From Candidatus Omnitrophota bacterium (GTDB lineage: Bacteria; Omnitrophota; Gorgyraeia; Aquiviventales; Aquiviventaceae), in contig JAHFGV010000005.1 in NCBI GenBank assembly GCA_023247255.1, positions 6,067 to 70,066 of the forward strand: a stretch of 64,000 bases of DNA, in the 5' to 3' direction. Below the pieces are notes generated by a model that was not told the DNA's origin, searched no databases, and saw nothing but the letters and a program-made list of their open reading frames with translations. The position numbers and the translations under genes are program-made. Shown piece after piece: positions 21,135 to 51,087 of this stretch. Positions within the stretch are counted from its first letter, which is position 1. Every line of letters starts with the position of its first letter.

Positions 21135-22136
21135 TTGCACAATTGCCCAATTTGTAGCATCCTATCCTTAACGCAGAGGAGGAACAAAGGCATGCTACGA
21201 TTTGCCAAACTCGTGCACCACCCGAGGAAACTCTACAGAATGACGGGACTTACGCTTGACCAGTTCCAGACGCTGACGAATCGGCTCACCCCGCTGTGGG
21301 AGCAAGCGGAACGGATGTGCCTCTCGCAGCGCAAGCGAAAGCCACGCCATCGGGAAAGAGTACCAAGTACAAGCTCTCCACGATGGCGGACAAACTCCTG
21401 TGCGTGCTCAGCTTCTACCGCTTCTACCTCTACCTTTGAGCTGCTCGGCTATCTCGTCGGCCTGGATGCCAGCAATATCTGTCGGCTAAAGCCTCGGCTC
21501 GAACCGCTCATTGAGCAGGCAGCCGATCCAAGCCTGGGGCTGTCGCTCCGCCGTCGGCTCCCGCCCGGCGTCAAGAGAATCGGCACCTGGGAGGAACTCG
21601 TGGAGCGCTGTCCGGACTTCGCAGACGTGGTCACTGATGCGACCAAGCAGGCACGACTCCGTCCACCGCGACGCACCCAGCGGCGCTGGTACTCCGGCAA
21701 ACGTAAGCGCCACACACTCAAGACGCAGTTGAGCATCACTCGGCAGAGTGGCCGGATCCTCCATATCAGTTCAACCGTCCCGGGCCGTGTCCATGACTAC
21801 GCGCTCTTGAAGCGGACGCGACTGGACGAACGGCTGCCGCCGAAGACGCGCCTCACCCTGGATCGGGGGTATGATGGTGCCATGACGGACTATCCGACTC
21901 CCGCTATCGCGCTGCCCGTCAAGCGTCGAGGCAACCACCAGGTCCTGACGCGCTCGGAGCGGGCATTCAACCGCCTCCAGGCGCGGCAGCGGATCATCGT
22001 GGAGCATGTCCCAAGTTGCGTGAAGAAGTACCAGCTCCTCGCGCAGGTCTACCGCCACCGGATCGCGGACTACAACCACCGCTTTCGCAACATTGCGGCC
22101 TTGACGAACTTCCGCCTAACGCCGACGGTGACGTAA
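21135..22136 (+). mobile_element. IS5-family (HTH_Tnp_4 + DDE_Tnp_4 type) transposase gene, apparently frameshifted
   Basis: The N-terminal HTH and the C-terminal DDE region (LDRGYDG...) are in one frame. The expected GRPRKLSxEDQLL..L.YLR segment (GKSTKYKLSTMADKLLCVLSFYRFY) lies in the -1 frame between about 21340 and 21438. Candidate imperfect terminal inverted repeats: gcacaattgccc (21150) and gggcaactgcgc (22170). Confidence 0.6.
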
Positions 22137-23123: not shown

Positions 23124-23366
23124 ATGGCAAAAGTGGTCACGGTACGGCTTTCGGAGGAGGACTATCGAAAGATTGCAGCCGTCGCAAAACGTGAGCGGCG
23201 CCCGCTTTCGAACTTTATGACGCTGATGGTGATCAAGGGCATCGAGGAGGGCGATTACGTCGATGCCGTGGAGATGGATCAGATCCTCGCGGACAAGTCT
23301 CTGAGGGCTAAGTTACGGGCAGGGCACTACGACGCCAAGCGACGCAAAGGCAAGCTCGTTGGCTGA
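23124..23366 (+). CDS. CopG/RHH-family antitoxin
   Basis: 80 aa. MAKVVTVRLSEEDYRKIAAVAKRERRPLSNFMTLMVIKGIEEG is a ribbon-helix-helix fold signature. Overlaps the downstream toxin gene by 8 nt. Confidence 0.65.
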   Translation: MAKVVTVRLSEEDYRKIAAVAKRERRPLSNFMTLMVIKGIEEGDYVDAVEMDQILADKSLRAKLRAGHYDAKRRKGKLVG

Positions 23367-23637
23367 TTTTCGTATCTTCGAGACCTCACAGTTTCAGAAG
23401 GACCTTCAGCAGGACTTCCGAGGGCAACAGGCGCGCATTGAACGCAAGCTCGCCACGTATGTCTATCCCCAGCTGCGAGCGAATTCCTACATCGGGAAGA
23501 ATATCAAGAAACTTCGGGATGCCGTTCCTGAGACCTGGCGGTATCGCATCGGGGATTACCGATTTTTCTACAGGGTCGATGAGCGGCAACGACTCATCTT
23601 TATGCTGACTGCCGACCATCGTGGTCACGCGTATTGA
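23359..23637 (+). CDS. RelE/ParE-family toxin
   Basis: 92 aa. IGKNIKKLRDAVPETWRYRIGDYRFFYRVDERQRLIFMLTADHRGHAY is a canonical RelE/ParE C-terminus. Confidence 0.65.
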   Translation: MADFRIFETSQFQKDLQQDFRGQQARIERKLATYVYPQLRANSYIGKNIKKLRDAVPETWRYRIGDYRFFYRVDERQRLIFMLTADHRGHAY

Positions 23638-25848: not shown

Positions 25849-26925
25849 GTGAACCTCCTCGTTGTGGGACTCAGTCATCGCACCGCGCCGCTCGAATTGC
25901 GCGAGCTGCTGGCGATCCCGTCACGCGAGTTGCCCGACACACTCGGCGATCTTCATACCCAGTTCGGGATCGATGAAGCGGTGATCCTGTCGACCTGCAA
26001 TCGGGTTGAGATCTACGTCATCACACCAGACCCCTCCGCAACCTCCTACGGCCTCATCGACTTCTTGAGTCATCGAAGCCACGTGGCCCCCGAGGCGTTC
26101 CAATCCCGGATGTATTGCCTAACGGGACCTGACGCGGTGAGACAGCTCTTTGGCGTCACTGCAGGGCTGGATTCGATGGTCCTTGGGGAGTCAGAAATCA
26201 CGGCCCAAGTGAAACAAGCCTATCGGGTGGCACAAACCGAAGAGACAACCGGGCTTGTGCTCCATCGCCTCTTCCAGAAAGCCTTGCACACGGCAAAGGT
26301 CATTCGATCCAAGACACGCTTAGGCTTTGGCCAAGCCTCCATCGGATCAATCGTTGTCGCGCTTGCCAGGAAACTCTTCGAAGGGCAACTTCAAAATTGC
26401 GAAGTCTTGCTTTGGGGAGCCGGAAAGGCGGCGGAATCGACTGCACGGTATCTCATCAAGAACGGGGTGGGCCAGTTGTGGATTGTCAACCGCACACCGC
26501 TCAAAGCGCGGGATCTTGCGACGCTTTGCCAAAGCGGCTGGCTCTCGTGGGAGCAGGCGTTGAAGCACCTCGCCCACGTCGATATTGCCATCGTCTGCAC
26601 CCAAGCGCCGCACTACGTCATCGATCAAGGCGACCTCGATGCGGTTGCGGCTCAGCGCGGCAGCCGCCCCCTGTGTCTCGTTGACCTGGCGGTGCCTCGC
26701 AACGTCGAGCCGTCCCTCGCGCGGCATCCCGGTGTGCGCCTCTACAACATCGATGATCTCCAAACCATTACGCAGGCTGCACAATCGCAGCGTGAACAGG
26801 AACGCGAACGCTCTGACGCGCTCATTCAGGAGCAGGTCAACCATTTCTCTCGTTGGTGGATGGCAGTTTCCCACAAGAAGGAGGATGTTCCATGCCGATC
26901 CGTCGAGGCCTTCTCGTCGGTGTGA
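25849..26925 (+). CDS. hemA: glutamyl-tRNA reductase
   Basis: MNLLVVGLSHRTAPLELRE ... ILSTCNRVEIY ... NAD(P)-binding GAGKAAESTARYL. 358 aa, somewhat short. Confidence 0.85.
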   Translation: MNLLVVGLSHRTAPLELRELLAIPSRELPDTLGDLHTQFGIDEAVILSTCNRVEIYVITPDPSATSYGLIDFLSHRSHVAPEAFQSRMYCLTGPDAVRQLFGVTAGLDSMVLGESEITAQVKQAYRVAQTEETTGLVLHRLFQKALHTAKVIRSKTRLGFGQASIGSIVVALARKLFEGQLQNCEVLLWGAGKAAESTARYLIKNGVGQLWIVNRTPLKARDLATLCQSGWLSWEQALKHLAHVDIAIVCTQAPHYVIDQGDLDAVAAQRGSRPLCLVDLAVPRNVEPSLARHPGVRLYNIDDLQTITQAAQSQREQERERSDALIQEQVNHFSRWWMAVSHKKEDVPCRSVEAFSSV

Positions 26926-28118
26926 GTCTCGTCGCGGCGCTTACGCTCGGAGAATCAGCGTGGGCAACGATCGAGAACCTCAAAAGCTACAAGGCAGCCT
27001 ATCCCGATAAAGATCCCAAGGCCTATTCGTGCAAGGCCTGCCACGAGGGCCTCATCGGGAAGAAAGACAACCTCAACGCCTATGGTCTCACCTTGCAGAA
27101 GTTCAAAGTGGATGCCGGGGCGAAGAAATTGACCGAAGAAGATTTTCGGGCGTTCGAGGCTGCGGATGCTGATGGGGATGGCGCCTCCAATCTTGATGAG
27201 CTGGACGCGGGCACTGATCTGAATGATCCCACGTCCGTGCCGGAGGGCGCTGGGCAAACGCCAGAAAAAAAAGAAGAAAGCCCAGGCACTGAGCAGCAGA
27301 CAAGCCCTCCAGGCGGCGCGTCGCAACTGAATCCAGGGACACTGAAACAGTTGCAGGCCTACCTGGAGGAGCAGATCGTCCCAGACGTTCAAGCGGCGCC
27401 AGAGGAATCGTCAGTGTCTAGGCGGCATGACGACAAAACAGCGTCCAACGCCAAATCCTCCCAACCCGAACAGGCTGAGTACGTGGGGATGGAGACCTGC
27501 GCGATGTGTCATAACAAGCAGCACCAGGAATTTCTCCACTCAACCCATGCCAGGATCGCAATCCCCGGAGAGACCAAGGCGCAAGGTTGTGAGACCTGTC
27601 ATGGGCCCGGCAGTCTGCACGTTGCTGCCGGTGGCGGTCGTGGCGTCGGTGGGATTATCAATCCGAAGAAGGATCCCGGCGCCTGTTTTGCCTGTCACCT
27701 CGACAAGAAAGCGGAATTTCGTTTGCCCCATCACCATCCCGTGATGGAAGGCAAGATGAGTTGTGCGGATTGCCACAATCCCCACGGTGAGGATGTGCGG
27801 CCGTGGTCAGCGACGACGCTGAAGGATATCAATGAGGCCTGCTTTCGGTGCCACAAGGAACAGCGCGGCCCATTCGCCTGGGAACACGAGGCGCTGCGGG
27901 AAGGTTGCACGACCTGTCACAAGGTTCATGGCTCGATTCACGAGAAGATGCTGCTCGTCCGGGACAACAACTTGTGCCTGCGCTGCCATACGCAGACGAA
28001 CTTCCCGACCATTGGCAGGTCCAGCCATGCTGGCCGGCTTCCCCAAGGGACGTGCTTTAGCGCGGGATGCCATACGGCGGTTCACGGATCGAACTTCGAC
28101 GATCACCTCCGCTACTAA
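26892..28118 (+). CDS. periplasmic multiheme (8-9 heme) cytochrome c with acidic Ca-binding-like N-terminal linker
   Basis: Signal peptide MPIRRGLLVGVSLVAALTLGESAWA. Eight CxxCH motifs plus one CxxxCH (CFSAGCH). A DADGDGASNLDELDAGTDLNDP TSP3-like acidic repeat lies after heme 1. Confidence 0.75.
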   Translation: MPIRRGLLVGVSLVAALTLGESAWATIENLKSYKAAYPDKDPKAYSCKACHEGLIGKKDNLNAYGLTLQKFKVDAGAKKLTEEDFRAFEAADADGDGASNLDELDAGTDLNDPTSVPEGAGQTPEKKEESPGTEQQTSPPGGASQLNPGTLKQLQAYLEEQIVPDVQAAPEESSVSRRHDDKTASNAKSSQPEQAEYVGMETCAMCHNKQHQEFLHSTHARIAIPGETKAQGCETCHGPGSLHVAAGGGRGVGGIINPKKDPGACFACHLDKKAEFRLPHHHPVMEGKMSCADCHNPHGEDVRPWSATTLKDINEACFRCHKEQRGPFAWEHEALREGCTTCHKVHGSIHEKMLLVRDNNLCLRCHTQTNFPTIGRSSHAGRLPQGTCFSAGCHTAVHGSNFDDHLRY

Positions 28119-28130
28119 AGGAGACGCCTC

Positions 28131-30191
28131 ATGCGCGCGATGCTTTGTTGGACGTTGGGAGGAATTCTGGGTGTGAGTCTATGGTTACCCTCACGCCTTG
28201 CTGAGGCTGCGGACCCGGAGGTTTCCCTTTCCCTGGAGCCCATCCGTTATGCGTTCGTCAATGGCGACCGGGATAAGTTTAGCGCCCATCATTGGATGAA
28301 AGACAACTACGTCGGAGGCGTGAAGGAGTTTTCCTTCGACTACGCCCTTGCGGATGGAACGCAGCTCTCCGCAGAAAGCCACGCGCTCATTGATCAAAAC
28401 GATTTGGGCGCTGACGTCTCACTTAAGAAAGACTCACTGGGCTTTTTCAATCTCGGCTACTCCGAATTCCGCAAGTATTACGATAAAACCGGTGGTGTGT
28501 ACTATCCGTTTACCACCCTTCGCAGCAACGATACGTTTAAGGACCTTGCTCTGGACATCGGTCACCTCAGCCTTGAAAGCGGGTTGACCCTGGAAGGCTG
28601 GCCTGACCTGACCTTCGAGTACGAGCGCGAATTCAAGGATGGGGCGAAATCGCGCCTGAGCTGGGTCCCAACGAAGGAAGGGACCACCACCCGGAATATC
28701 GGTCCCTCGTGGCAAGATCTTGATGAGGTCGTCGACTCATTTGGCCTCAAAGCCGATCATGAGATCGCAGGATTCACTCTCAAGGGCGAGCAGCGATGGG
28801 AGTTCGTGCGGACCGAAACCTTTCGGGAGGAGAAATTTCTCGCGACAACAGGTGTCGCAGCAGACACCAAGATTCGACGGCAGGACCAAGCCCCGCAAGC
28901 CACCTTGATGACGACGACGTTAGGCGGGGAGCGTTCGTTCTTCGCTGACAAGATATTTACATCGATGGGCTACCATTTCGCCCACATGGATAATCGGGAA
29001 TTCGAGACAATCGTCGAGTCGAACGCGGCTGGAACCGTAACAAACTTTTCGAATCCGAAGCAGATCCGTAATGCGCGCGCCGATAACGACTACGATACCC
29101 ATACCTGGGTAGGGAACTTCATGATCAACCCCTGGAACTGGCTGAGCCTCGGGACCAAACTCAAGGCTGAAGCGATTCACCGGGAGAGCGACTCAAGCTA
29201 TCCGGCGGATGCCTCGCCGAACTCCACGGGCGGCAGCACCCCGAATGGGGCGATCGACTCTCTCGTGGCCAGTCTCAACAAGAACAAGGCCGTTCGCTGG
29301 GGGGAAGGAGTGTCCCTGCGGTTTTTTGGCATCCCACGCACCGCTCTCTACACTGATTTGGAGTTGGAGCAATCGCGAGTAATCTTGGCAGAGGATCGGA
29401 AAGATTTAGTGACGATCCCGAATGTCAACGAGGATTTCAGCCGCTACACTGTCACCAACGTCCGACGAGGGACGTGGACATTGGGCGGCCATGTCGCGCC
29501 GGGGTCGTTCCTCGATCTGACGACGCAGGTCCGGCGACGTGTCAACAACAACGACTACGATGACCAACGGGAAACCGTCGCCTCAGGGACGGCGCTGTCC
29601 GCATTCGTCGATATGCAGAACATCCATACGGATGAGTTCACCACGCGGGCCACGCTGCGGCCCTCTCGGTGGTTTCGCCCCTCGTTCCGGTACCAGTTCC
29701 GTAACGATAAATATGCGACTCGGACGGAAGCGCAGGATACCGTAAAGACGGGTATGCTCTCGAACATCTACACTTTTGACGTAACGGCACAACCGTTGCG
29801 AGACCTCACGACCACCGCCTCCTTCTCGCGTCAGACGGCCGTCACCACCACTCCCGCGGGTTCGGCGTCGTCAGCAAACGTTCCTGGGTTTCGCGCAAAT
29901 GTCAACACGTGGCTTTTCAGCACCGACTACAGCCCAAGGGCGAATGTGAGTATCACCAACGCGCTGCTCTATTCGCGCGCAAGAAACTTCAACGATTTTA
30001 CCGCCAGCGGGATGCCGTTCGGGACCTCGTTTGATCGGCTGGATGTGACCACAGGTCTGAAGTGGGCGCTGACCGAGGATACGTCTGTTGGCACCGAATA
30101 CGCATTCTACTCGTATCTGCCCAATTCGCTGACCGAAGTGGGCGACTACCATGCCCACGTCATCTGGCTCGAGTTGTCGAAGCAGTTTTGA
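28131..30191 (+). CDS. putative outer-membrane beta-barrel (porin partner of the preceding cytochrome, MtrB/PioB/MtoB-like)
   Basis: 686 aa with a signal peptide, alternating amphipathic beta-strand patterns and an aromatic C-terminus ...HVIWLELSKQF. Gene order cytochrome then barrel matches mtrAB/pioAB/mtoAB. No sequence comparison was possible. Confidence 0.45.
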   Translation: MRAMLCWTLGGILGVSLWLPSRLAEAADPEVSLSLEPIRYAFVNGDRDKFSAHHWMKDNYVGGVKEFSFDYALADGTQLSAESHALIDQNDLGADVSLKKDSLGFFNLGYSEFRKYYDKTGGVYYPFTTLRSNDTFKDLALDIGHLSLESGLTLEGWPDLTFEYEREFKDGAKSRLSWVPTKEGTTTRNIGPSWQDLDEVVDSFGLKADHEIAGFTLKGEQRWEFVRTETFREEKFLATTGVAADTKIRRQDQAPQATLMTTTLGGERSFFADKIFTSMGYHFAHMDNREFETIVESNAAGTVTNFSNPKQIRNARADNDYDTHTWVGNFMINPWNWLSLGTKLKAEAIHRESDSSYPADASPNSTGGSTPNGAIDSLVASLNKNKAVRWGEGVSLRFFGIPRTALYTDLELEQSRVILAEDRKDLVTIPNVNEDFSRYTVTNVRRGTWTLGGHVAPGSFLDLTTQVRRRVNNNDYDDQRETVASGTALSAFVDMQNIHTDEFTTRATLRPSRWFRPSFRYQFRNDKYATRTEAQDTVKTGMLSNIYTFDVTAQPLRDLTTTASFSRQTAVTTTPAGSASSANVPGFRANVNTWLFSTDYSPRANVSITNALLYSRARNFNDFTASGMPFGTSFDRLDVTTGLKWALTEDTSVGTEYAFYSYLPNSLTEVGDYHAHVIWLELSKQF

Positions 30192-30634
30192 TGTGTCCTC
30201 GTCAGCCCCTCAGTCGCCGGGTTTTCCTGGCGCTTTGCCTCAGGGGTGGTGGGCTTGCCCTGCTTGGGGCTGCGCTCTATCCCATCCTGCGGTATCTCTA
30301 TCCTCCCCGAGGCGTTGAATCCTCCGTCTCCAGCGTTGCGGCGGCGAAGGTGGGGGATCTGGCGACGAATACCGCGAAGATCTTCCGGTTCGGCAGTCGG
30401 CCCGGCCTCCTCATTCGTTCCCCCCAAGGCGAGCTCAAAGCCTTCTCGGCGGTGTGCACCCACCTCAACTGCACCGTTCAGTACGACAGCGACGCGAGCA
30501 TCATCTGGTGCGCCTGCCACAACGGCAAGTATGACTTAAACGGACAGGTCATCTCCGGCCCTCCCCCACGACCACTCGATGCCTACCAGGTGAACGTCCG
30601 CGGAGAAGACATCATCGTCTCCAAGACGTCCTAG
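30191..30634 (+). CDS. Rieske [2Fe-2S] protein
   Basis: TAT-like SRRVFLALCL. Rieske boxes CTHLNC and CACHNGKYD. About 147 aa. ATG overlaps the upstream stop. Confidence 0.8.
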   Translation: MCPRQPLSRRVFLALCLRGGGLALLGAALYPILRYLYPPRGVESSVSSVAAAKVGDLATNTAKIFRFGSRPGLLIRSPQGELKAFSAVCTHLNCTVQYDSDASIIWCACHNGKYDLNGQVISGPPPRPLDAYQVNVRGEDIIVSKTS

Positions 30635-30638
30635 CCTG

Positions 30639-31709
30639 ATGGGGTACTTCGAGCACCTACGCGCATTCTTGCATGAGCGCTACCGGCTGGGTGGCCTAGT
30701 GGATCTCGCCACGCATAAGACGGTCCCCATCCACCGCCACAGCGTCTGGTACTACTGGGGCGGCATGACGCTCGTGCTCATCGGCATCCAGATCATCAGC
30801 GGTGTGCTGCTGTTGCTGTACTACCGCCCATCAGCCCAGGAAGCCTTCGAGTCGGTTCGCTTCCTCATGACGCGGGTGCAATTCGGGTGGCTGGTGCGCT
30901 CCGTGCACGCGTGGGCGGCGAACCTGGCGATCTTCTGCGCGATGGTGCATCTGGCCAGCGTCTTTTTCCTGAAGGCGTATCGGCCACCCCGTGAACTGAC
31001 CTGGGTGACCGGGGTTGTGTTGTTGTTTCTGCTATTTGGTTTCGGATTTACCGGCTACCTCCTGCCGTGGAATACGCTGGCGTTTTTCGCCACCAAGGTC
31101 GGCACGGAAATCGCGGGGATTGTGCCCGTCGTCGGGCCTGTCGTTCAAATCTTTCTGCGCGGTGGAAGCGACGTTGGGGATGTGACGATCACGCGGTTCT
31201 TTTGGCTTCATGTCGCAATCCTGCCAATCGGCCTGATGACACTCTTAAGCCTTCATCTGCTCATGATCCAGCTCCAGGGCATGAGCAAACCGCCTTGGGT
31301 TAAGAGCAATCGGTCCATGCCGTTCTTTCCGAATTTTTTCCTGCGCGATCTGGTTGCCTGGTCACTCATACTGGGGATAGTGCTGTGTGTGAGCGTGCAC
31401 TGGCCCGCGACGCTCGGCGAAAAGGCCGATCCGTTCGCTCCGACACCCGTGGGCATCCAACCGGAATGGTATTTTCTCTGGATGTTTCAGACGCTCAAGA
31501 TTTTCCCTGGCCACCTGTTTGGTCTCGAGGGTGAGTTAGTCGCGGTGGGATTGACCGGACTGGCGGGTCTTGCGCTGCTACTCGTTCCATGGCTGGATCG
31601 CCCCGCCCGACGGGAGCAATCATCCTGGCTGGTATGGGCTGTTGGCGTGTTGGGCATTGCCTATGTCGTCGGGATGACCGGCTACGCGCTATGGGTGAAA
31701 CCTCACTGA
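30639..31709 (+). CDS. cytochrome b (fused b6 / subunit IV type)
   Basis: 356 aa. His ligands lie in TM helices (VHAWAANLAIFCAMVHL, WLHVAILPIGLMTLLSLHLLMIQ). PEWYFL motif present. Confidence 0.85.
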   Translation: MGYFEHLRAFLHERYRLGGLVDLATHKTVPIHRHSVWYYWGGMTLVLIGIQIISGVLLLLYYRPSAQEAFESVRFLMTRVQFGWLVRSVHAWAANLAIFCAMVHLASVFFLKAYRPPRELTWVTGVVLLFLLFGFGFTGYLLPWNTLAFFATKVGTEIAGIVPVVGPVVQIFLRGGSDVGDVTITRFFWLHVAILPIGLMTLLSLHLLMIQLQGMSKPPWVKSNRSMPFFPNFFLRDLVAWSLILGIVLCVSVHWPATLGEKADPFAPTPVGIQPEWYFLWMFQTLKIFPGHLFGLEGELVAVGLTGLAGLALLLVPWLDRPARREQSSWLVWAVGVLGIAYVVGMTGYALWVKPH

Positions 31710-32995
31710 TGACAGGGTATCGTCTACGGGTGGCACTCGGACTTCTGCTGTGCCCTGGCTTTGTGTGGTCGGCTGAGAAGCCGAATAGTTGTGTCGAGTG
31801 CCACAAGCAGGTGGAGGGCCAAACGCGAGGGCCGGCCACACTGGCTGCAGAGGACGTGCATTTCCAGCGAGGCTTGTCCTGCGTGGATTGCCATGGCGGC
31901 GATCCAACAGCGATGGATCCTCAAGCCGCGATGGACCCGGCTAAAGGGTTCCTCGGTCGCCCGAGGCGGGAGCAGATTCCCCAGTTTTGCGCCCGGTGCC
32001 ACGCGGATCCGGCCACCATGCGCAAGTACAATCCCAATCTTCCGACTGACCAATACGCGAAGTACCTGACCAGTCAGCACGGGAAGCGCTTCAGTGTTGG
32101 CGATGCCGATGTGCCGGTCTGCATCAGTTGCCACGAGGCGCACGGCATCCGCTCGAAAAAAGACCCAGCCTCGCCGGTCTACCCGACGAACATCCCCGGA
32201 ACCTGCGCGAGCTGCCACAGCGACGCGTCGATCATGGACAAACACGGCTTGCCGGTGAACCAGCACTGGGACTACTCGCAGAGCGTCCACGGCCAGGCGC
32301 TGTTGTTCCGTGGCGATCGTGCGGCTCCCCATTGCGCGAGCTGCCACGGATCGCACGAAGCGGCCAAACCTAGGACGGTCGCAATCGGCAACGTCTGCGC
32401 TCAGTGCCATAGCCTCACGCGCGATCTGTTTGCAAAGAGTCCCCACAAGGCCGCGCATGAAGCCTTAGGGCTTCCGGAGTGCGAGGTCTGCCACGGCAAT
32501 CACCTGATCCGCAAGCCAAGCGACGAGATGCTTGGGACGGGACAAGATGCGGTGTGTGTCAGTTGTCACGAGCCAGGGTCGACCGGCTACGTCACCGCGC
32601 AGCAGATGCGCAGCGCCATCGAGCAACTGAAAACCCACATGGCCAGCGCTGAGGCAGCCGTCAGGCACGCAGCGGAGTTGGGCATGGATGTCGGTGACGC
32701 GGAATTTGAGCTTCGCGAGGCGATGACCCAACTCACGCAAGAGCGCACCTACGTCCACTCTTTCTCCGCCGCAACCATGGAACCCATTGCCGAGGAGGGA
32801 ACTCACCACGCCCTGCGGGCCGAGGGGCAAGCCCGCCAGGCGATCCGTGAGTTTCATTTCCGCCGTCAGGGCTTGTGGGTCACCCTGATCATTCTCGCCC
32901 TCGTGGTTTCTGGACTCCTTCTGAAGATTCGAGACTTGGAGCGATCGGACTCGACAGACAAGATGGACGACACATCCCCTCGCGACTCCTCGTAA
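31709..32995 (+). CDS. multiheme (about 9 heme) cytochrome c with C-terminal membrane anchor
   Basis: Signal peptide, then nine CxxCH motifs and a C-terminal TM helix WVTLIILALVVSGLLLKI. Start overlaps the cytochrome b stop. Confidence 0.75.
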   Translation: MTGYRLRVALGLLLCPGFVWSAEKPNSCVECHKQVEGQTRGPATLAAEDVHFQRGLSCVDCHGGDPTAMDPQAAMDPAKGFLGRPRREQIPQFCARCHADPATMRKYNPNLPTDQYAKYLTSQHGKRFSVGDADVPVCISCHEAHGIRSKKDPASPVYPTNIPGTCASCHSDASIMDKHGLPVNQHWDYSQSVHGQALLFRGDRAAPHCASCHGSHEAAKPRTVAIGNVCAQCHSLTRDLFAKSPHKAAHEALGLPECEVCHGNHLIRKPSDEMLGTGQDAVCVSCHEPGSTGYVTAQQMRSAIEQLKTHMASAEAAVRHAAELGMDVGDAEFELREAMTQLTQERTYVHSFSAATMEPIAEEGTHHALRAEGQARQAIREFHFRRQGLWVTLIILALVVSGLLLKIRDLERSDSTDKMDDTSPRDSS

Positions 32996-33032: not shown

Positions 33033-34550
33033 ATGAACCACACATCGATGCCAAAACCCCCCAGCCTCTTGCGCAACCCGCTGAGCTTTTTCGGCCTCGC
33101 CGTCGCCATCACGAGCACGGCGTTTGGCCTGCCCATGATGTTCGTCGACATGTTCAGTCGACGCACGCATCCGTATCTTGCTGTGCTCGTTTATCTCGTG
33201 CTGCCGTTCGTTGCAGCAGGCGGCGTCGGCTTAGTCCTGCTTGGAGCATTGTGGGAACGCCGTCGAAGACGCCGACGGCCTGGCATGGTAGTGCCACCCC
33301 TGCCATCCATCGATCTCAATCGAAGCGCCCACCAGATTGCTGTGGCTGGAGCACTCACAACGTTCATGACTATTGTGGCCATGCTCTCCGTGACCGGCTA
33401 CCGGGCGTACCACTTTACGGAGTCGGTCAAATTCTGCGGCCTGGTCTGTCACCAGGTGATGAAACCGGAGTATACGGCGTATCAGTATTCTCCGCATGCG
33501 CGCGTGGCCTGCACCCAGTGCCATGTCGGGCCTGGTGCAAGCTGGTTCGTGCGCTCAAAGATCACAGGAGCGTATCAGGTTTACGCGGTTACATTCAACA
33601 AGTACCCGCGCCCGATTCCCACACCCGTGAAGAGCCTGCGTCCGGCGCAAGAAACTTGCGAGCAATGCCACTGGCCGGCGAAGTTTTTTGGCGCGCAGCA
33701 GAAAACCTTCACGCACTACATGGCGGATGAGCACAACAGCCCGTGGCAGATTCAGATGCTGCTGAAAATCGGCGGCGGCGATCCGTCGGTTGGCGCTCCT
33801 GCGGGCATTCACTGGCACATGAACATCAAGAACGATATTTATTACATTGCCTCAGATGAGCAGCGGGAAACCATTCCGTGGGTGCGCGTGGTCGAGCCGC
33901 AGGGACGCATCGCCGAATATATGTCGATGGAAAGTCCGCTCTCGCCGGAGCAGATCGTAAAGAGCGAAGTGCGCCGCATGGACTGCGTGGATTGCCACAA
34001 CCGGCCCTCCCACATCTTTCGACCGCCGGATCGTGCGGTGGAGGAGGCCTTCGAGACCGGCCGGCTAGAGCGGTCCCTGCCGTATCTGAAGCGCGAAGCC
34101 ATAAGGTTGTTGGCGCAAGAGTACCCCTCGGAGGAGCAGGCGTTATCAGCCATCCTGAAAGGCTTGGCCGAGTTCTACCAGAAGGACTATCCAGAGGTGT
34201 ATCGCGAACAGGCAGTCGCTATTCAACAGGCCACAGCTGAGTTGCAACGCATCTATTCGAGGAATTTCTTTCCCGAGATGCGCGCCGATTGGCGCGCCCA
34301 TCCCAACCACATGGGCCATCTAAATGCCGAAGGCTGCTTCCGCTGCCACGATGGGCTGCACAAAAACCGCGAGGGCAAGGTGCTAACCAAAGACTGTACC
34401 GCCTGTCACACGATCTTGGCCCAGGGGCCACCTGAGGAGGTGGCGCAAGCCAAGCTTGAAGCGCAGCCGTTTCGCCACCCGGTCGACGTGGGGATGGACG
34501 TGACGGAATTTAAGTGCAGCCAGTGTCATACCGGCACGAGCGGTCTCTAG
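33033..34550 (+). CDS. inner-membrane heptaheme cytochrome c (NapC/NirT-superfamily, ImcH-like)
   Basis: Three N-terminal TM helices followed by seven CxxCH motifs. 505 aa. Confidence 0.6.
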   Translation: MNHTSMPKPPSLLRNPLSFFGLAVAITSTAFGLPMMFVDMFSRRTHPYLAVLVYLVLPFVAAGGVGLVLLGALWERRRRRRRPGMVVPPLPSIDLNRSAHQIAVAGALTTFMTIVAMLSVTGYRAYHFTESVKFCGLVCHQVMKPEYTAYQYSPHARVACTQCHVGPGASWFVRSKITGAYQVYAVTFNKYPRPIPTPVKSLRPAQETCEQCHWPAKFFGAQQKTFTHYMADEHNSPWQIQMLLKIGGGDPSVGAPAGIHWHMNIKNDIYYIASDEQRETIPWVRVVEPQGRIAEYMSMESPLSPEQIVKSEVRRMDCVDCHNRPSHIFRPPDRAVEEAFETGRLERSLPYLKREAIRLLAQEYPSEEQALSAILKGLAEFYQKDYPEVYREQAVAIQQATAELQRIYSRNFFPEMRADWRAHPNHMGHLNAEGCFRCHDGLHKNREGKVLTKDCTACHTILAQGPPEEVAQAKLEAQPFRHPVDVGMDVTEFKCSQCHTGTSGL

Positions 34551-34627: not shown

Positions 34628-36183
34628 ATGGGGGAGGCTCTGACGAGAAACGGCGGACGGATACGGCGCGTAGCGCTCTGCGCGCTCTTCACGTGCTGGA
34701 CCTGGGCGCCGCGGGCCATGGGAGAGGGCAGCGTCTCTCCAGCCGCGCAAGAGATCGACAACGCTGCCTGTCTGGCTTGCCATGGTGATCCCTCGGCAAT
34801 CCGCTTTGTGGACCACGCGAAGTTCGAGGCTTCCGTCCATGGGAGTTTTTCCTGCACTACCTGCCACGCGGATGTCGTCACCATTCCCCATGACGTGCCG
34901 CTGGAGTCGATCAGTCAGTCGCAGATCCCCCTCACGTGCGGCCAGTGCCATGAAGACATCAAGGCTGCCTACCAGCGGAGTATCCACGCTCAGGCGGTCG
35001 CCGCCGGCAAGCGCCATGCGCCCGTCTGCACCGACTGCCATGGTGAGCACTATGTGGCCCCGGTGAAAACGGAGGCGTCGAAAGTGTTTCCCTCGCACAT
35101 CCCGCAGACGTGCGCACAGTGCCACGCGGCGGAGCGCATCGTTACGAAGTATCGGTTGCCGGCGTACGTGGTCGATACGTACATGAGCAGCTTCCACGGC
35201 CTCATACACCAACTGGGATCCGTGACGGCCGCGAACTGCGCCTCCTGCCACGGGGCGCATGACATTCTCCCCGCGAACGACGAGCGTTCCTCGGTCAATC
35301 CGAAGAACCTGCCGAAAACCTGTGGCTCCTGCCATCCGGGCGTCGGCGCGTTCGTCGCACAGGGAAAGATTCACTCCGGCACACAGCCCGGAGCGGAACA
35401 TCCTGCGGTGACATTCGTTCGCCGGTTCTACCTCATCCTCATCGGTTTGGTCATTGGGGGCATGCTGATTCACAACGGTCTCGATTTCCGCAAAAAACTC
35501 TCGATCCATTACCAACGGATGGCCGCCAGCAGCGCGGTACAACGGATGAGTCTTAATGAGCGCCTTCAACATGGCGTGCTCTTGATCGCCTTTGCGACGC
35601 TCGCCTATACCGGATTTGCGTTAAAGTTCCCGCATGTCTGGTGGGCACGCCCCTTCATGGGCCGCGTCGACTGGCGCCGCCTGGGGCATCGGGGAGCGGC
35701 GGTCGTCTTCTGCCTGCTCGCCGGCTACCACCTCTGGTTCATGACGTGCACGAAACGGGGGCGGAGCGAGTTGCGCGCCTTGCGACCCGAACGAGCCGAC
35801 TTCACGCACCTGAGACGGATGCTCGGCTTCTATCTGGGTAGGAGCCGGGAGCAGCCGCGCGCGGCGCGGTACAGCTACGTGGAGAAAGCGGAGTATTGGG
35901 CGCGGTCTGGGGTTCAGTCATCATGGTGCTCACCGGCGGTCTGATGACCTGGCAGAATTGGACATTGCGCTTCCTGCCCAAGTGGGCGTTCGATGTTTTT
36001 ATCACGGTGCATTTTTATGAAGCACTCCTCGCATGCTTGGCGATCCTTATTTGGCACCTCTACTTCGTCATGTACGATCCCGATGAATACCCGATGAAGT
36101 GGACGTGGATCAGCGGCAAGGCCTCACCCACCGACGAGGCACATCGGCATCCAGGCGACGCCGAGGAAGGCAATCCAGGCTGA
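34628..36183 (+). CDS. CbcL-like fusion of a heptaheme cytochrome c with a FdnI/HydC-type di-heme cytochrome b (interrupted by a frameshift near 35897)
   Basis: Seven CxxCH motifs, then TM helices with conserved His (RFYLILIGLVIGGMLIHNG, HGVLLIAF, HRGAAVVFCLLAGYHLW). The reading frame shifts -1 at the tattgggcgcgg G-run and continues as VWGSVIMVLTGGLMTW ... HFYEALLACLAILIWHLYF. Confidence 0.6.
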
Positions 36184-36269: not shown

Positions 36270-38051
36270 ATGACACCCTTCGTCCGATTCCTTGGATCGC
36301 TGAGCATCGCGGTGCCGCTGCTGATCGTGATTGCCCTGGTGCTCGCATGGGGCACCATCTATGAAACCCGCTTTGGCACGGCGGCGGTTCAGCGCTTTGT
36401 CTACCACGCGTGGTGGTTTCAAGCGCTCCTCGGCTTTCTGGCGATCAACCTCGCCGTGGCTGCGCTCGAGCGCTATCCGTGGCAGCGTCGACACCTGCCG
36501 TTTGTCCTGGCCCACATCGGCATCATCCTCATCCTGATTGGGGGGATTATCGGAGCCCGATTCGGCATCGAGGGTCAGATGATCATTCCGGAAGCTCAGG
36601 CCGAGCGCGTCCTCGAGCAGCCAGGCAATGTCCTTGTAGTGCGCCAGCCAAACCCGGGTCTATCTATCATCATCCCCACGCAGTTTGAAACGCAGGCCTG
36701 GGTGCATGAGCCGAACGCGACCTTTCCCGTGACTCTCGATGGCCGGACGATTGCGCTCACCGTCGACCGCTACTATCCCGACGCGGTGACGGATGAAGAA
36801 ATCACAAGCGGTGGCGCTGAGGACAATCCGGCTCTCCACATGCTGCTTACGCACAACGAGCAGCAGGATGCGGTGTGGCTCATGAGCAGGGACTCTGAGC
36901 GTTTTGGTATGGGCTGGGGTGAGGCGCACGTGCTCTTCCTTGAACCAAGAACTGCTTCTGAAGTCGATCGGCTTACTGGGGCTGGGCGCTCACCTGGCGT
37001 CGCGTCTGCGCGAGGCGTGATCGTTATCCGCCTACCCGGGATGCATGCGCCACGCGAGATTCCGGTTCCCGATGAGCGCAACCGATCCGTCGACGTCACA
37101 GGCACGCCCTATCAGATCATCTTCAAGGATTACTTTCCCGATTTTGCGATTACCGAACAGGGGATCGTGAGCCGCTCGCTTGAGGCCAATAACCCTGCGG
37201 TTTCTTTCATCATCACCGGACCCGAGGGAACCGATGCGTATTTGCTGTTTGCGCTCCATCCCGATTTTCAAACGATCCATGGCTTCGAACATAAGATCGA
37301 CGCCCAGGTGAGTTATACCCACACCGCCAGCGCTGCGCTGCCTCCCAATTGTATCGGGCTCATCCGTGCACCATCAGGAACCTTAATCGGTATCTTGACC
37401 GGCAGCGGGACCGATCGATCCGTGATCAATCCGCTGGAACTTGGCAAACGGTACACCCACCCTTCGCTCGGCTATCAGTTTGAAGTCGCCACGTACTATC
37501 CCCGTGCGGTTCTCACGCAGCACGTCACCAACCGAGGAGATGAAATCAAAGCCGAAACGCTTCATCTCGTGGGACGTGAAGGTGATCAGAGCGCAGAGGC
37601 GTGGTTGGGTTTGCGCGGCTCGGCAGAATTCGCGTTGGGAAAGGAGCCGGTTACGATTGAGTACCGACCGGCCCGATGGGAGCTGCCGTTTACCATCAAG
37701 CTCTTGGACTTTCGCAAGATCGACTATCCAGGAACGCAGATGGCCTCGGCGTTTGAAAGCGACGTGGAGCTCACCGATTCTCAGCGGGGTGTCATCCTGA
37801 TGCGCAAGATTACGATGAACAACCCCCTGCGCTACCGCGGGTTTAGCGTGTACCAATCCAGCTACATCGAAGGCCCGACGGAAACCACAGTGCTCTCGGT
37901 GCGCAATGATCCAGGAACCCCATTTGTTTATGCGGGGTTCATCATTGTGATCGCCGGCGTCGTCAGTATGTTTGTGCTCGGCACCCCCTCCACGACCGCA
38001 ACCCCTCCGCCTTCGATCCGGCGAGTACGCAGAAGGAGCCGCTCTTCATGA
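36270..38051 (+). CDS. ccsB: cytochrome c biogenesis protein ResB/CcsB
   Basis: 593 aa with N-terminal TM helices, a large soluble domain and a C-terminal TM. ResB-like. Confidence 0.8.
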   Translation: MTPFVRFLGSLSIAVPLLIVIALVLAWGTIYETRFGTAAVQRFVYHAWWFQALLGFLAINLAVAALERYPWQRRHLPFVLAHIGIILILIGGIIGARFGIEGQMIIPEAQAERVLEQPGNVLVVRQPNPGLSIIIPTQFETQAWVHEPNATFPVTLDGRTIALTVDRYYPDAVTDEEITSGGAEDNPALHMLLTHNEQQDAVWLMSRDSERFGMGWGEAHVLFLEPRTASEVDRLTGAGRSPGVASARGVIVIRLPGMHAPREIPVPDERNRSVDVTGTPYQIIFKDYFPDFAITEQGIVSRSLEANNPAVSFIITGPEGTDAYLLFALHPDFQTIHGFEHKIDAQVSYTHTASAALPPNCIGLIRAPSGTLIGILTGSGTDRSVINPLELGKRYTHPSLGYQFEVATYYPRAVLTQHVTNRGDEIKAETLHLVGREGDQSAEAWLGLRGSAEFALGKEPVTIEYRPARWELPFTIKLLDFRKIDYPGTQMASAFESDVELTDSQRGVILMRKITMNNPLRYRGFSVYQSSYIEGPTETTVLSVRNDPGTPFVYAGFIIVIAGVVSMFVLGTPSTTATPPPSIRRVRRRSRSS

Positions 38052-39709
38052 AACGCGCCTTTATGACGATTATGACGATGGCGTTATTGTTCGGAGCCTT
38101 GGCGAGATTTATGAGCGTATTCGCAGATCAGCCCGTTGCCCTGCCGCGCGAGGCGCTCGAGACCATACGTCGCATGGCCATCCAACACAATGGACGCAAC
38201 AAACCCTTCGACAGCTTTGCGCGAGAAACCCTCCGACTCATCACCGGCTCAGCGCGCGTGGGAAATGAAGATCCTGTCGAAACCATCTTGACCCTCATGG
38301 CCAGTCCCGACCATGGGCAGCAGTTGCTGCTTGTGTCGGTTCCATTTATCCCTCTGCGAAAGGCTCTGGGCATGGATCCCAAGGCGACGCAGGTGTCCTA
38401 CAACGATTTGGTTGCGACACGCAAGCTCATGCGGCTGCTGCCCCCGATTGTCCAAAAGCAGCAGCGCGAAGAGAAACTTTCGATGCTGGAAGAAGAGACG
38501 ATGGATGTCTTCCAGCGATTTGCCACCCTGAGCACTCTGCTCGAGCAAAAGCTCAACCTCGTGCCTCCACCTGTTGGATCTGCAGAGCGTGTGTGGCAGC
38601 TTGTTGAGGAGCCGTCGGGCTATGCGCCAGCGCAGCAAGAGACCATTCGTACCGCATGGTCCGGGCTGATCGGTGCGGTGCAAGCTGGGCGGGGCGATGC
38701 GGTGATTACCTCAGCGCGTCATGCGGCAGATGCGCTGCGAGATCTGAGCCCTTCTCGCTATCCTCCTCGGTGGCGATTAGCGTTCGAGGTGTTCTACAAC
38801 CACGTCGCGCCATTTCGAATCGCCCAAGGGTTCTATCTGCTCTCAGCGATCCTGTTGTTTCTGAGCCTTGGCGCATTGAAGAAATTCCGGCCAGCGCTTT
38901 TGGGATTTGTCGCTTGCTGCTTCGCGTTTCTCGCGCATGGATCAGGTATCCTGATGCGCGTTGTTCTGGGTGAGCGTCCGCCGGTCTCGAATTTTTTTGA
39001 GACCACGCTGTGGCTGCCGTTCGTCGCAGTCGCCATTGCGCTCATCCTGGAACGTGTGTACCGGACTCGTTACATCGCCCTGGCTGCGGCGATCCTTGCG
39101 ACAATCACCCTGGTTCTCGCGGATCATCTGCCGCTGGACTCGAGCATCTCTCCGGTGGTCGCCGTGCTCCACAGCAATCTCTGGTTGACGATTCACGTGT
39201 TGACCATCGTGGCGAGCTACGGCGCGCTGACCCTGGCGATTGTGCTGGCGCACATGTATGGGGGGATGTACCTGAGTCGCCGCACGAGCGGCTCAACGTT
39301 AGATGCGTTGGGGACATTTCTCTATCGCGTCATCCAAGTCGGCGTCGTGTTATTGGCGGCGGGGATCATGCTGGGCGCCGTGTGGGCCAACGCCTCTTGG
39401 GGCCGTTACTGGGGCTGGGATCCGAAAGAGACCTGGGCGTTGATTACCCTCATCTGGTTCCTGGCGCTGCTGCACGGACGCTTCGCCGGATGGATCAGCG
39501 GTGTTGGCGTAGCCCTGTGCACCGTCGGCGGATTTTTTCTGCTGCTGATGACCTACTACGGTGTCAGCTTCTATCTCGTCGGTCTGCACAGCTATGCCGG
39601 TGCTCATGCCAAGCCCTTGCCCCCAGTTCTCATCGCCTACCTCATCGCTGAACTGGCGTTCATCATCGTGGTGAGCGTCTCAGCCATACTCCGCAGGCGG
39701 CCAGCGTAG
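38048..39709 (+). CDS. ccsA: cytochrome c biogenesis protein CcsA/ResC
   Basis: WWD motif WANASWGRYWGWDPKETWAL. 553 aa with a long N-terminal extension. Confidence 0.85.
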   Translation: MKRAFMTIMTMALLFGALARFMSVFADQPVALPREALETIRRMAIQHNGRNKPFDSFARETLRLITGSARVGNEDPVETILTLMASPDHGQQLLLVSVPFIPLRKALGMDPKATQVSYNDLVATRKLMRLLPPIVQKQQREEKLSMLEEETMDVFQRFATLSTLLEQKLNLVPPPVGSAERVWQLVEEPSGYAPAQQETIRTAWSGLIGAVQAGRGDAVITSARHAADALRDLSPSRYPPRWRLAFEVFYNHVAPFRIAQGFYLLSAILLFLSLGALKKFRPALLGFVACCFAFLAHGSGILMRVVLGERPPVSNFFETTLWLPFVAVAIALILERVYRTRYIALAAAILATITLVLADHLPLDSSISPVVAVLHSNLWLTIHVLTIVASYGALTLAIVLAHMYGGMYLSRRTSGSTLDALGTFLYRVIQVGVVLLAAGIMLGAVWANASWGRYWGWDPKETWALITLIWFLALLHGRFAGWISGVGVALCTVGGFFLLLMTYYGVSFYLVGLHSYAGAHAKPLPPVLIAYLIAELAFIIVVSVSAILRRRPA

Positions 39710-40157: not shown

Positions 40158-40214
40158 GACTCATGAAACAGACGTGAGCACTGCCACTAACCTCGATGCA
40201 TTTTGTAAAACCCC
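40158..40214. repeat. 57-bp element shared with the nuoJ upstream region (2645-2699)
   Basis: gactcatgaaacagacgtgagcactgccactaacc(t/g)cgatgcattttg(t/a)aaaaccc. Two mismatches over 55 bp. Confidence 0.5.
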
Positions 40215-40291
40215 AGTTACGACTGACGCCTTCCAAGTCTTCTTGCACCTGCTGTAGTGAATCCATCTGCTGCAGCGAATCTCGCGAAAGG

Positions 40292-42250: not shown

Positions 42251-42359
42251 TTCCACCACCTGTGTGTTGGCCGCAGGCCGGGCGCTGGCGTGGCACGCGG
42301 CCCCCTCGATGGAGCCAGCGACCGGTTTCGCCTTCGGCGAAACCATATAGTGTGGTAGG

Positions 42360-42563
42360 ATGACCTGTCCGCTCTGCGGCTTTGCCTTCGGAGAGAGGGA
42401 GCAAACCTGGGCTTGTCAGCGTTGCCCCTTGGCGTCCGGCTGTCGACTTACCCGCTGCCCACGATGCGGCTATGAGTGGGCAGAGGAATCACGGTTGGTG
42501 AACTGGCTCAAAGAGCGCTGGCGTATCCTCGAACGCCCCAACGGTCATGACGATCCATCGTGA
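42360..42563 (+). CDS. small zinc-ribbon protein
   Basis: 67 aa with two CxxC pairs (CPLCG ... CQRCP ... CPRCG). Confidence 0.35.
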   Translation: MTCPLCGFAFGEREQTWACQRCPLASGCRLTRCPRCGYEWAEESRLVNWLKERWRILERPNGHDDPS

Positions 42564-43254
42564 GCAGATTGAAGAGTTGCTGGAGCTGTGCTGGACAGCG
42601 GCAGAGGACGGCCTGGCGCCGCTTGATCGCCACCAGTTGCCGACGCAGCTTCTGTGTTTTCTTCCGCACCCCATTGAGCCAAACGGCGATGTCCAACAGG
42701 AAACTATCGATGTGATGGTTCAGGAAGGACTCCTGTTGAGTGACGGTCGGCGCATCCGATTAAGTGCGACGGGAACGCCCCAGGCCAAAGAGGTGGTCCG
42801 TCGGCATCGCCTTACCGAGGTGCTCCTCCATACCCTCCTTGACATCTCCGAAGAATCTATGGAGTCGACCGCTTGCCAAGTGGAGCATATCCTCAATGCC
42901 GAGGTGACCGAAGCGGTGTGCACATTCCTGGGTCATCCCCCGATCTGCCCGCATGGCCGTGCCATCCCACAGGGCCATTGCTGTGAAACTTCGCGCGCGA
43001 GGCTAGAGCCACTCATTGTTCCTTTAGCTCGCTTAACGATTGGCGAGACAGCGAGCGTCGCGTTTGTACACACCACGCGACACGCCTATCTTCAGCGTCT
43101 GAGCACGTTGGGGCTTGCACCCGGACGGCCCATTCGATTGCGTCAAACGCAACCTGCGCTTGTTGTGCAAGTGGGAGAAACCGAGCTCGCCTTAGATAAC
43201 GAGGCTGGCCAAGAAATCTTCGTGAGGCGAAACCCACACAACACCCCTGCGTAG
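42547..43254 (+). CDS. DtxR/MntR-family metal-dependent regulator fused to a C-terminal FeoA domain
   Basis: RRHRLTEVLLHTLLDISEESMESTACQVEHILNAEVTEAVCTFLGHPPICPHG is the DtxR metal-binding/dimerisation region. The C-terminal LARLTIGETASV ... is FeoA-like. Confidence 0.6.
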   Translation: MTIHREQIEELLELCWTAAEDGLAPLDRHQLPTQLLCFLPHPIEPNGDVQQETIDVMVQEGLLLSDGRRIRLSATGTPQAKEVVRRHRLTEVLLHTLLDISEESMESTACQVEHILNAEVTEAVCTFLGHPPICPHGRAIPQGHCCETSRARLEPLIVPLARLTIGETASVAFVHTTRHAYLQRLSTLGLAPGRPIRLRQTQPALVVQVGETELALDNEAGQEIFVRRNPHNTPA

Positions 43255-45365: not shown

Positions 45366-45367
45366 CC

Positions 45368-49521: not shown

Positions 49522-49541
49522 CGAGATGAGGCGTGTGAGCG

Positions 49542-49818
49542 ATGCCGTATAAGGAACCCGAACCGGATGATCCTTTGGAGCTGACGGGAGTCGTCCTACC
49601 TGCTTCGGACGAGACGTCACTGAAGGAAATGGCCGTGTGTTTCGTCGAAGAGTTCCTGCGCGACGGCTGGTCGGATGAGCAGCTTCGTGCGATGTTCCGC
49701 AATCCCTACTACCGAGGTCCCTACCTCGTGTGGCGGCAGAAGGGCGATGCATACGTGGAGGCTGTGATCCAGGAAGTCCGTCACATCTGGCGCCCCAACG
49801 CAGCCGGAGGAGCGACTC

Positions 49819-49826
<8 letters not shown>
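49542..49826 (+). CDS. small hypothetical protein translationally coupled to nxrB
   Basis: 94 aa. Stop overlaps the nxrB start by 8 nt. No recognisable family. Confidence 0.35.
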
Positions 49827-51057
<1,231 letters not shown>

Positions 51058-51087
51058 ATTTTGCTGCGCAACATTTATTAACCGGAT

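Follow-up and report, generated by a model that had tools for sequence, protein, structure and literature searches.

The window analysed here, 64,000 nucleotides of contig JAHFGV010000005.1 from a Candidatus Omnitrophota genome assembly (GCA_023247255.1), carries two neighbouring genes on its forward strand that encode a secreted multihaem c-type cytochrome (26892-28118) and an outer-membrane β-barrel (28131-30191). Judged by the sequence of the cytochrome core and the modelled fold of the barrel, the pair is homologous to MtrAB, MtoAB and PioAB, and is a divergent relative of these systems. On balance we favour a reading in which the two proteins form a two-component trans-outer-membrane conduit of the MtrAB/MtoAB/PioAB type, with electrons flowing most likely outward from quinol. 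The two genes have the following features:

26892..28118, + strand: secreted c-type cytochrome of 408 residues, with a GGAGGA Shine-Dalgarno-like sequence upstream of the start
26892..26966, + strand: Sec signal peptide of the cytochrome, MPIRRGLLVGVSLVAALTLGESAWA/T (ending AWA/T), the sole hydrophobic segment of the protein
26967..27236, + strand: N-terminal monohaem module with CKACH at residue 47, DLNAYG, a DxDxDGxxNxxE loop (residues 92-103) and GTxxxDP, delimited from alignments and an AlphaFold2 model
27237..27467, + strand: disordered linker rich in Pro, Glu, Gln and Ser, with an amphipathic helix and a vestigial signal-peptidase-like site
27468..28118, + strand: MtrA-like octahaem core with seven CXXCH motifs, a terminal CX4CH motif and the C-terminal sequence HGSNFDDHLRY
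28131..30191, + strand: outer-membrane 26-strand β-barrel of 686 residues, the predicted sheath of the cytochrome core, with a signal peptide ending RLAEA/AD

The cytochrome and its barrel partner

The cytochrome contains nine haem-binding motifs, eight CXXCH and one CX4CH (CFSAGCH, residues 388-394), and is predicted to bind nine haems, of which the core holds eight and the N-terminal module a single one. An earlier note on this DNA, made from the sequence alone, had overlooked the CX4CH motif and called the protein an octahaem cytochrome. In a phmmer search against the sequences of the Protein Data Bank (PDB), MtrA (6r2q_A) was the only strong match (E 4.2e-32), with residues 197-402 of the cytochrome aligned to residues 61-325 of MtrA. 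In this alignment the CX4CH motif occupies the place of the final motif of MtrA (haem 10), just before an HGSN sequence that both proteins have in common. The best NCBIfam match is the DmsE-family decahaem model TIGR03508 (161.9 bits, E 1.9e-47), but the score is under the cut-off of 192.2 bits, and the cytochrome is therefore not a threshold-level member; instead of the ten CXXCH motifs of that family, the core holds seven and one CX4CH. The GSU2203 family model gives 159 bits against a cut-off of 325, and the Pfam domains found in the protein are Paired_CXXCH_1, Cytochrome_C7 and an NrfB-like domain.

The database contains 4,401 homologues of the cytochrome, and two forms can be distinguished among the closest 120. 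Long forms (~320-425 residues) cover the entire query, and short forms (~233-295 residues) cover the C-terminal 52-64% only, at 66-87% identity. Every core haem motif, including CX4CH, and the C-terminal HGSNF..HLRY are invariant in an alignment of 42 sequences.

The barrel has no Pfam or NCBIfam match, even at E<=10. Its AlphaFold model, calculated from an alignment of 58 family members, is of high quality (predicted local distance difference test score, pLDDT, 90.9; predicted template modelling score, pTM, 0.80) and shows 26 long β-strands. MtrB (6r2q_B) is the top match of this model in a Foldseek search of the PDB (E 2.6e-12, template modelling (TM) scores 0.64/0.68), and the next matches are 22-strand TonB-dependent receptors with TM scores of ~0.41. 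The modelled barrel is wide enough to house a multihaem insert, and the soluble β-sandwich that the earlier note had raised as the adverse outcome is not seen. Assignment of the barrel as a transporter or TonB-dependent receptor was rejected on the basis of strand count, the absence of a plug, and synteny.

Clustered at 50% identity, the barrel family comprises 887 clusters with E<=1e-3 and 376 with E<=1e-30. The MtrB_PioB model PF11854 is matched by three of 48 distant members (best E 4.3e-6). Because a family of this size (887 clusters) has no Pfam or NCBIfam model, surveys that use MtrB/PioB models miss it. The barrel ends in VIWLELSKQF, the terminus (LSKQF) having been read correctly in the earlier note. 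As for the aromatic C-terminal residue that the note emphasized, Phe is the last residue in 34 of 58 members and Trp in three more, and most of the others have a penultimate Trp. An N-terminal CXXC motif, typical of MtrB in metal-reducing Gammaproteobacteria, is absent from residues 26-120 of all 58 members, and the sole Cys of the barrel in the window is in its signal peptide.

Synteny was analysed in the 36 related loci found in a genome collection. Most of these are labelled Omnitrophota or Omnitrophica, and the remainder are uncultured Planctomycetales or Planctomycetia, one Eisenbacteria and one Actinomycetota metagenome-assembled genome, and several unclassified bacteria. The core cytochrome gene lies directly upstream of the barrel gene in all 36 loci, over a range of barrel identities from 32% to 70%. 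The earlier note had taken the two genes for a cytochrome-barrel conduit, and this adjacency supports that reading, as do the MtrA-homologous core and the barrel model.

The pair resembles MtrAB from Shewanella (6R2Q) in the cytochrome-then-barrel gene order, in the sequence of the core, where the homology includes the C-terminal haem (...CH...HGSN), and in the barrel model, with its 26 strands and MtrB as the best structural match. It differs in that the core has eight haems compared with ten in MtrA, ends in a CX4CH motif, and scores under the TIGR03508 cut-off. No similarity to MtrB can be detected in the sequence of the barrel, which also lacks the N-terminal CXXC. The nearby genes include none for a surface cytochrome of the MtrC type, and the cytochrome has an extra monohaem/Ca-loop module.

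Upstream of the core, the long forms in the 42-sequence alignment share a signal peptide ending AWA/T, the monohaem module, a low-complexity linker of variable length, and an amphipathic stretch with AWA. The module has the consensus CxxCH ... DLNAYG ... AKKLTxED ... DxDxDGxxNxxE ... GTxPxDP, and the mature N-terminus (A25/T26) is invariant in the module alignment. Neither a Met nor a second His is conserved in that alignment; we speculate that the distal haem ligand could be a Lys, a Tyr, or the N-terminal amino group, as in cytochrome f. The acidic string DADGDGASNLDELDAGTDLNDP is located at residues 92-113. Its residues D92, D94, D96, G97, N100, E103 and T108 are each at least 90% conserved among 15 module sequences, which shows that the motif is more than a chance feature. 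In the AlphaFold model, the module has pLDDT values of 80-94, and the DxDxDG loop is placed between helices 82-90 and 100-106 in an EF-hand-like arrangement.

The earlier note had described the acidic segment as a Ca-binding linker resembling thrombospondin (TSP) type-3 repeats. The DxDxDG loop is indeed conserved, but it is present as a single copy rather than a repeat, and it remains below threshold in the cytochrome both for TSP3_bac (PF18884; E 0.13, 12.6 bits versus a cut-off of 25) and for EF-hand_5 (E 0.078, 12.9 bits versus 25.9). The module also has a weak match to a GEGP dihaem model, and family-wide searches revealed precomputed PF18884 matches in several homologues. A search of the PDB with the module profile returned EF-hand proteins only, at non-significant values (E>=0.1). 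Judged from the alignments, the acidic motif is a single DxDxDG-type Ca-loop with no repeat array, and an EF-hand loop describes it no worse than a TSP type-3 repeat does.

The spacer between haem 1 and the remaining haems, reported in the earlier note as rich in Pro, Glu and Gln, is just that: the 77 residues after the acidic string contain nine each of Pro, Glu, Gln and Ser (47%). AlphaFold assigns the linker low pLDDT values and no secondary structure besides a conserved amphipathic helix at residues ~148-161 (LKQLQAYLEEQIV). In the long forms, a (P)xAWA motif with acidic residues is found ~25-45 residues upstream of the first core haem; the sequence in this cytochrome is VQA/A. The internal helix and AWA element align with the signal peptides of the short homologues in the 42-sequence alignment, but the maximal hydropathy over 12 residues is 0.1 here and 0.1-1.8 in the homologues, compared with 2.0-3.0 in real signal peptides. 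A transmembrane segment at this position was ruled out, because the hydropathy is too low.

A search with the module alone identified 23 small proteins of 108-155 residues with the same architecture, and all named ones are labelled Candidatus Omnitrophica or Omnitrophota. Two loci (L010 and L014) have a free copy of the module between hemA and the gene with the fused copy, and in another (L036) a free copy is located after the barrel gene. Among the 36 related loci, the fused module is limited to the clade with ~49% or higher barrel identity. On the strength of the free-standing proteins and of the non-hydrophobic element that aligns with the signal peptides of the short forms, we read the extension as the product of a gene fusion, in which the gene for a periplasmic monohaem cytochrome merged with that of the conduit cytochrome, whose own signal peptide, now the second of two, has degenerated and survives only as a vestige.

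The earlier note had considered such an extension unusual for an MtrA-type insert. [quoted passage not shown] An N-terminal extension as such is therefore not without precedent. What distinguishes the cytochrome described here from PioA is that its extension is a monohaem cytochrome with a predicted Ca-binding loop, neither of which is found in PioA, that this module also exists as a separate gene, and that the internal element is not hydrophobic. The genes that accompany the pair differ as well, with Rieske/cytochrome b, ImcH and CbcL in place of the PioC or CymA/MtoD of the PioAB and MtoAB systems.

In a distant branch of the family, 24 of 48 members carry a monohaem domain of the PSCyt1 (Planctomycete cytochrome C) type as an N-terminal fusion to the barrel, so that these barrels have acquired monohaem modules on more than one occasion. 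In the one locus of this type that was inspected (L038, 6001-8487), no multihaem cytochrome adjoins the fusion gene. The branch recalls the monohaem-porin Cyc2 and may represent a cytochrome-porin fusion of the Cyc2 kind, built on a barrel far larger than that of Cyc2 with its ~16 strands. The barrel in the window differs from Cyc2 in its much larger size, its separate multihaem insert, and the absence of a fused haem domain.

The apparent operon around the pair

The two genes are part of an apparent operon with the order hemA, cytochrome, barrel, Rieske, cytochrome b, nine-haem cytochrome, ImcH homologue, CbcL-type protein, ccsB and ccsA. The genes that flank the pair are:

25849..26925, + strand: hemA, glutamyl-tRNA reductase of 358 residues, first gene of the apparent operon (Pfam GlutR_N 8e-49, Shikimate_DH 3.9e-33)
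30191..30634, + strand: Rieske [2Fe-2S] subunit with an N-terminal transmembrane anchor (Pfam Rieske 1.5e-13; NCBIfam b6f iron-sulfur subunit 1.9e-21)
30639..31709, + strand: cytochrome b, a fusion of b6 and subunit IV, 356 residues (Pfam Cytochrome_B 2.7e-48, Cytochrom_B_C)
31709..32995, + strand: nine-haem c-type cytochrome with a C-terminal transmembrane anchor (residues 389-407) and nine CXXCH motifs (Pfam Paired_CXXCH_1, Cytochrome_C7)
33033..34550, + strand: ImcH homologue of 505 residues with three transmembrane helices, CX3CH and six CXXCH motifs (NapC/NirT and NrfH matches)
34628..36183, + strand: putative CbcL/MtrH/MtoC-type protein with seven CXXCH motifs and a HydC/FdnI-like b-type membrane domain, split by a 1-nucleotide frameshift
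36270..39709, + strand: ccsB (resB) and ccsA, system II cytochrome c maturation, end of the apparent operon (Pfam ResB 9.5e-31, Cytochrom_C_asm 1e-30)

From hemA to ccsA, the genes are spaced by -34, 12, -1, 4, -1, 37, 77, 86 and -4 nucleotides. Scans for promoters and terminators gave no signal above shuffled controls, so the operon assignment rests on gene spacing and synteny. A search for FNR/Crp boxes yielded 26 matches versus 20 expected, none of them upstream of hemA. The hemA gene overlaps the start of the cytochrome gene by 34 nucleotides, and its product is short, with no match to the dimerisation domain of glutamyl-tRNA reductase. In at least 11 related loci hemA is located directly upstream of the conduit genes, which suggests that haem supply is co-regulated with the conduit, and ccsBA adjoins the conduit genes in many loci.

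On the downstream side, the TGA stop codon of the barrel gene (30189-30191) and the ATG that opens the Rieske gene overlap by a single base, at position 30191. The earlier note had seen this TGATG overlap and concluded that the conduit is tied to a bc-complex operon. The overlap and the tie are both real, and the tie is conserved in the closest clade, but ImcH takes the position in more distant relatives. Rieske/cytochrome b follows the barrel in L002, L004, L005, L006, L008 and L010, ImcH follows it in at least nine more distant loci, and in three loci it is followed by a nine-haem cytochrome and then Rieske/cytochrome b. The alternation of Rieske/cytochrome b and ImcH as the barrel neighbour agrees with the idea of one shared conduit to which different quinol oxidases can be coupled interchangeably. 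In two loci (L003, 3845-7756; L014, 11244-14867) a membrane-anchored five-haem cytochrome and an Fe-S protein with a twin-arginine (Tat) signal, together resembling ACIII/Qrc, are located between the barrel and Rieske/cytochrome b; this set would be another interchangeable partner on the quinol side.

The cytochrome b scores 222 bits with the NCBIfam cytochrome b6 model and 210 bits with that of ExtP, both under the cut-offs, and the nine-haem cytochrome is presumed to be the c-type subunit of the Rieske/cytochrome b complex. The ImcH homologue has transmembrane helices at residues 20-38, 51-69 and 102-120, a CX3CH motif (CGLVCH) at residue 135 and six CXXCH motifs. It was assigned from the description of the ImcH family, with which it agrees point by point: three N-terminal transmembrane helices, an adjoining atypical CX3CH, six CXXCH, and a length of ~495-519 residues (Zhong and Shi, PMC6295460). 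The membrane domain of the CbcL-type protein matches Ni_hydr_CYTB (E 3.6e-6, 27.3 bits) under the cut-off of 30.1, and there is an NCBIfam match to the formate dehydrogenase gamma subunit.

The exact agreement with the ImcH signature and the putative CbcL-type fusion are points of likeness to Geobacter sulfurreducens, and a cluster that combines a porin with a bc complex also has a precedent there. In the Geobacter extHIJKLMNOPQS cluster, a porin-like gene is grouped with a Rieske protein (ExtO), a cytochrome b (ExtP) and multihaem cytochromes (PMC5877670). However, ExtI is reported as a 45.2-kDa protein, much smaller than the 686-residue barrel. In a survey of 2018, ImcH was found only in Fe(III) reducers, and imcH never adjoined mtrAB or mtoAB (PMC6295460). 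In contrast, imcH here is located within the conduit operon, and in many relatives directly after the barrel, and the host lineage is Omnitrophota, not Desulfuromonadia.

Electron flow through the predicted conduit

By analogy with the Mtr complex, the octahaem core would be threaded through the 26-strand barrel with its N-terminus in the periplasm, and the last haem (CX4CH, the equivalent of MtrA haem 10) would be positioned at the cell-surface end. The conduit would be co-transcribed with hemA, ccsBA and three inner-membrane quinol:cytochrome c oxidoreductase modules, namely Rieske/cytochrome b with the anchored nine-haem cytochrome, ImcH, and CbcL. Electrons would pass from quinol via the inner-membrane modules to periplasmic haems, and from there through the conduit to an extracellular acceptor; Fe(III) or Mn(IV) oxides, humic substances and a partner cell are candidates. 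The monohaem/Ca-loop module, as a formerly free-standing periplasmic cytochrome, would probably serve as the periplasmic entry point for electrons, and may either stay tethered on the flexible linker of ~80 residues or be released by a cut at the vestigial AWA site, in the manner of PioA. We favour the outward direction because the ImcH family has so far been tied to Fe(III) reducers and because quinol-oxidising modules dominate the operon.

Several observations weigh against this outward-conducting assembly. The AlphaFold model of the cytochrome core (pLDDT ~45) is too poor for a claim about its fold, so the threading is taken from the homology to MtrA; Foldseek returned nothing for the cytochrome model, which we used for no fold claim. 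The eight-haem core is shorter than the ten-haem chain of MtrA. At the sequence level, the barrel gives no match to PF11854, and the profile of 58 family members picks out no PDB chain, in both cases at E<=10. Near position 35900, the reading frame of the CbcL gene is broken by an apparent single-base deletion (EKAEYWA / VWGSVIM), which reflects either a pseudogene or an assembly error; the homologues in L005, L008 and L010 read through. Finally, no lipoprotein multihaem cytochrome of the MtrC/OmcB type adjoins the conduit genes in the window or in the nine related loci inspected, which also sets the system apart from the Geobacter Pcc complex (OmaB-OmbB-OmcB) with its third, extracellular component.

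The composition of two components without an extracellular cytochrome is that of PioAB from Rhodopseudomonas palustris TIE-1 and MtoAB from Sideroxydans, which serve Fe(II) oxidation or electron uptake, and it makes inward flow a live alternative, one that we hold to be possible rather than probable. The same conduit would then draw electrons from a partner cell, from minerals or from extracellular Fe(II) or Mn(II), and pass them to acceptors in the periplasm, for example an NXR/NAR-like enzyme, or uphill via Rieske/cytochrome b to quinone. The absence of CXXC from all 58 barrel members is consistent with this direction, as are the feoB and DtxR-FeoA genes after the operon and a type II dimethyl sulfoxide (DMSO)-reductase-family enzyme, with a gamma subunit fused to a dihaem cytochrome c, encoded ~4 kb past the operon. 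The N-terminal extension with its internal signal-like element resembles PioA, the absence of a surface cytochrome in nine loci is as described for PioAB (PMC6831781), and CbcL/MtoC-type proteins are known in reducers and oxidisers alike (PMC6295460). Against inward flow stands the restriction of ImcH to Fe(III) reducers in the 2018 survey, where it never adjoined mtrAB or mtoAB (PMC6295460). The molybdoenzyme cluster, moreover, is not conserved beside the conduit in other loci, and the operon shows no PioC/HiPIP, Cyc2 or cbb3-type partner. Because known conduits work in both directions in vitro, sequence alone cannot decide the direction.

We speculate further, although we regard this as unlikely, that the fused module acts as a Ca2+-dependent periplasmic relay, tethered or released, that wires Rieske/cytochrome b to the conduit and thereby creates a hard-wired proton-motive chain from quinol to the outside. 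With inward flow, such a relay could couple extracellular Fe(II) to the putative nitrate/nitrite molybdoenzyme, and the locus would then offer a candidate enzymatic route for nitrate-dependent iron oxidation.

It is improbable that the conduit instead serves a soluble or surface terminal reductase, or a membrane-impermeant oxyanion, in the manner of DmsEF or ExtI (with DMSO, selenite or tellurite as substrates). The DmsE family is the best NCBIfam match of the cytochrome, and the cytochrome b resembles ExtP (210 bits) of the Geobacter selenite/tellurite cluster, which likewise combines a porin with Rieske/cytochrome b, but all NCBIfam matches concerned are under their curated cut-offs, and ExtI (45.2 kDa) is far smaller than the barrel. 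The window does encode a DMSO-reductase-family enzyme and a DUF2490 outer-membrane-type protein; however, no molybdoenzyme adjoins the conduit here, nor consistently in relatives, and the gamma subunit with its haem b and dihaem c points to a periplasmic enzyme that needs no conduit. That the barrel is an ordinary substrate porin or a TonB-independent transporter, with a meaningless cytochrome adjacency, is scarcely credible in view of the 36 of 36 loci with this adjacency across 32% to 70% barrel identity, the 26 rather than 22 strands with no plug domain and no TonB box, the Foldseek TM scores of 0.64-0.68 for MtrB versus ~0.41 for receptors, and the PF11854 matches in three of 48 distant family members.

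The energy metabolism of the widespread, uncultured Omnitrophota is known mostly by inference. The case for metal respiration in this lineage has so far rested on automated FeGenie matches and on counts of ImcH and CbcL homologues: FeGenie 'metal-reducing cytochrome' matches were reported in 10 of 23 Omnitrophia species (Seymour et al. 2023, PMC10066038), with a mention at the same level in PMC8478452, and three ImcH and three CbcL homologues were counted in Omnitrophica (PMC6295460). The extracellular electron transfer described in PMC12057145 is flavin-based and unrelated. A literature search found no published description of the pair, the barrel, the fusion module, or the linkage to ImcH and Rieske in Omnitrophota. 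As an outward conduit, which is the reading we favour, the locus would constitute a concrete and complete candidate pathway within one operon, comprising haem synthesis, three quinol oxidases, a periplasmic module, the conduit, and cytochrome maturation. Three differences in design from MtrA lend themselves to testing: the fused monohaem module, the terminal haem with its invariant CX4CH motif, and the position directly beside the conduit of Rieske/cytochrome b, a complex that could conserve energy.

Other genes in the window

The window also encodes complex I subunits and ATP synthase. Genes for a Crp/FNR regulator and a hemerythrin are located upstream of hemA. Directly after ccsBA, FeoB and a DtxR-type repressor fused to a FeoA domain are encoded (40196-43254), so that genes for iron uptake and regulation adjoin the haem-rich operon. 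The type II DMSO-reductase-family (NXR/NAR/Ebd-like) cluster spans 43767-51867, ~4 kb past the operon:

43767-45365: molybdoenzyme haem-b gamma subunit fused to a dihaem cytochrome c
45197-48820: molybdoenzyme alpha subunit
48814-49521: DUF2490 outer-membrane-type gene, wedged between the alpha and beta subunit genes
49819-51057: molybdoenzyme beta subunit
51088-51867: molybdoenzyme chaperone

Upstream of the operon, an open reading frame for a transposase of the DDE_Tnp_1/DDE_Tnp_4 family is found at 21135-22136, based on precomputed Pfam matches of an identical gene in L001. Between the metabolic genes and the block with the Crp, hemerythrin and hemA genes, two overlapping small genes (23124-23366 and 23359-23637) have the appearance of an antitoxin/toxin pair.

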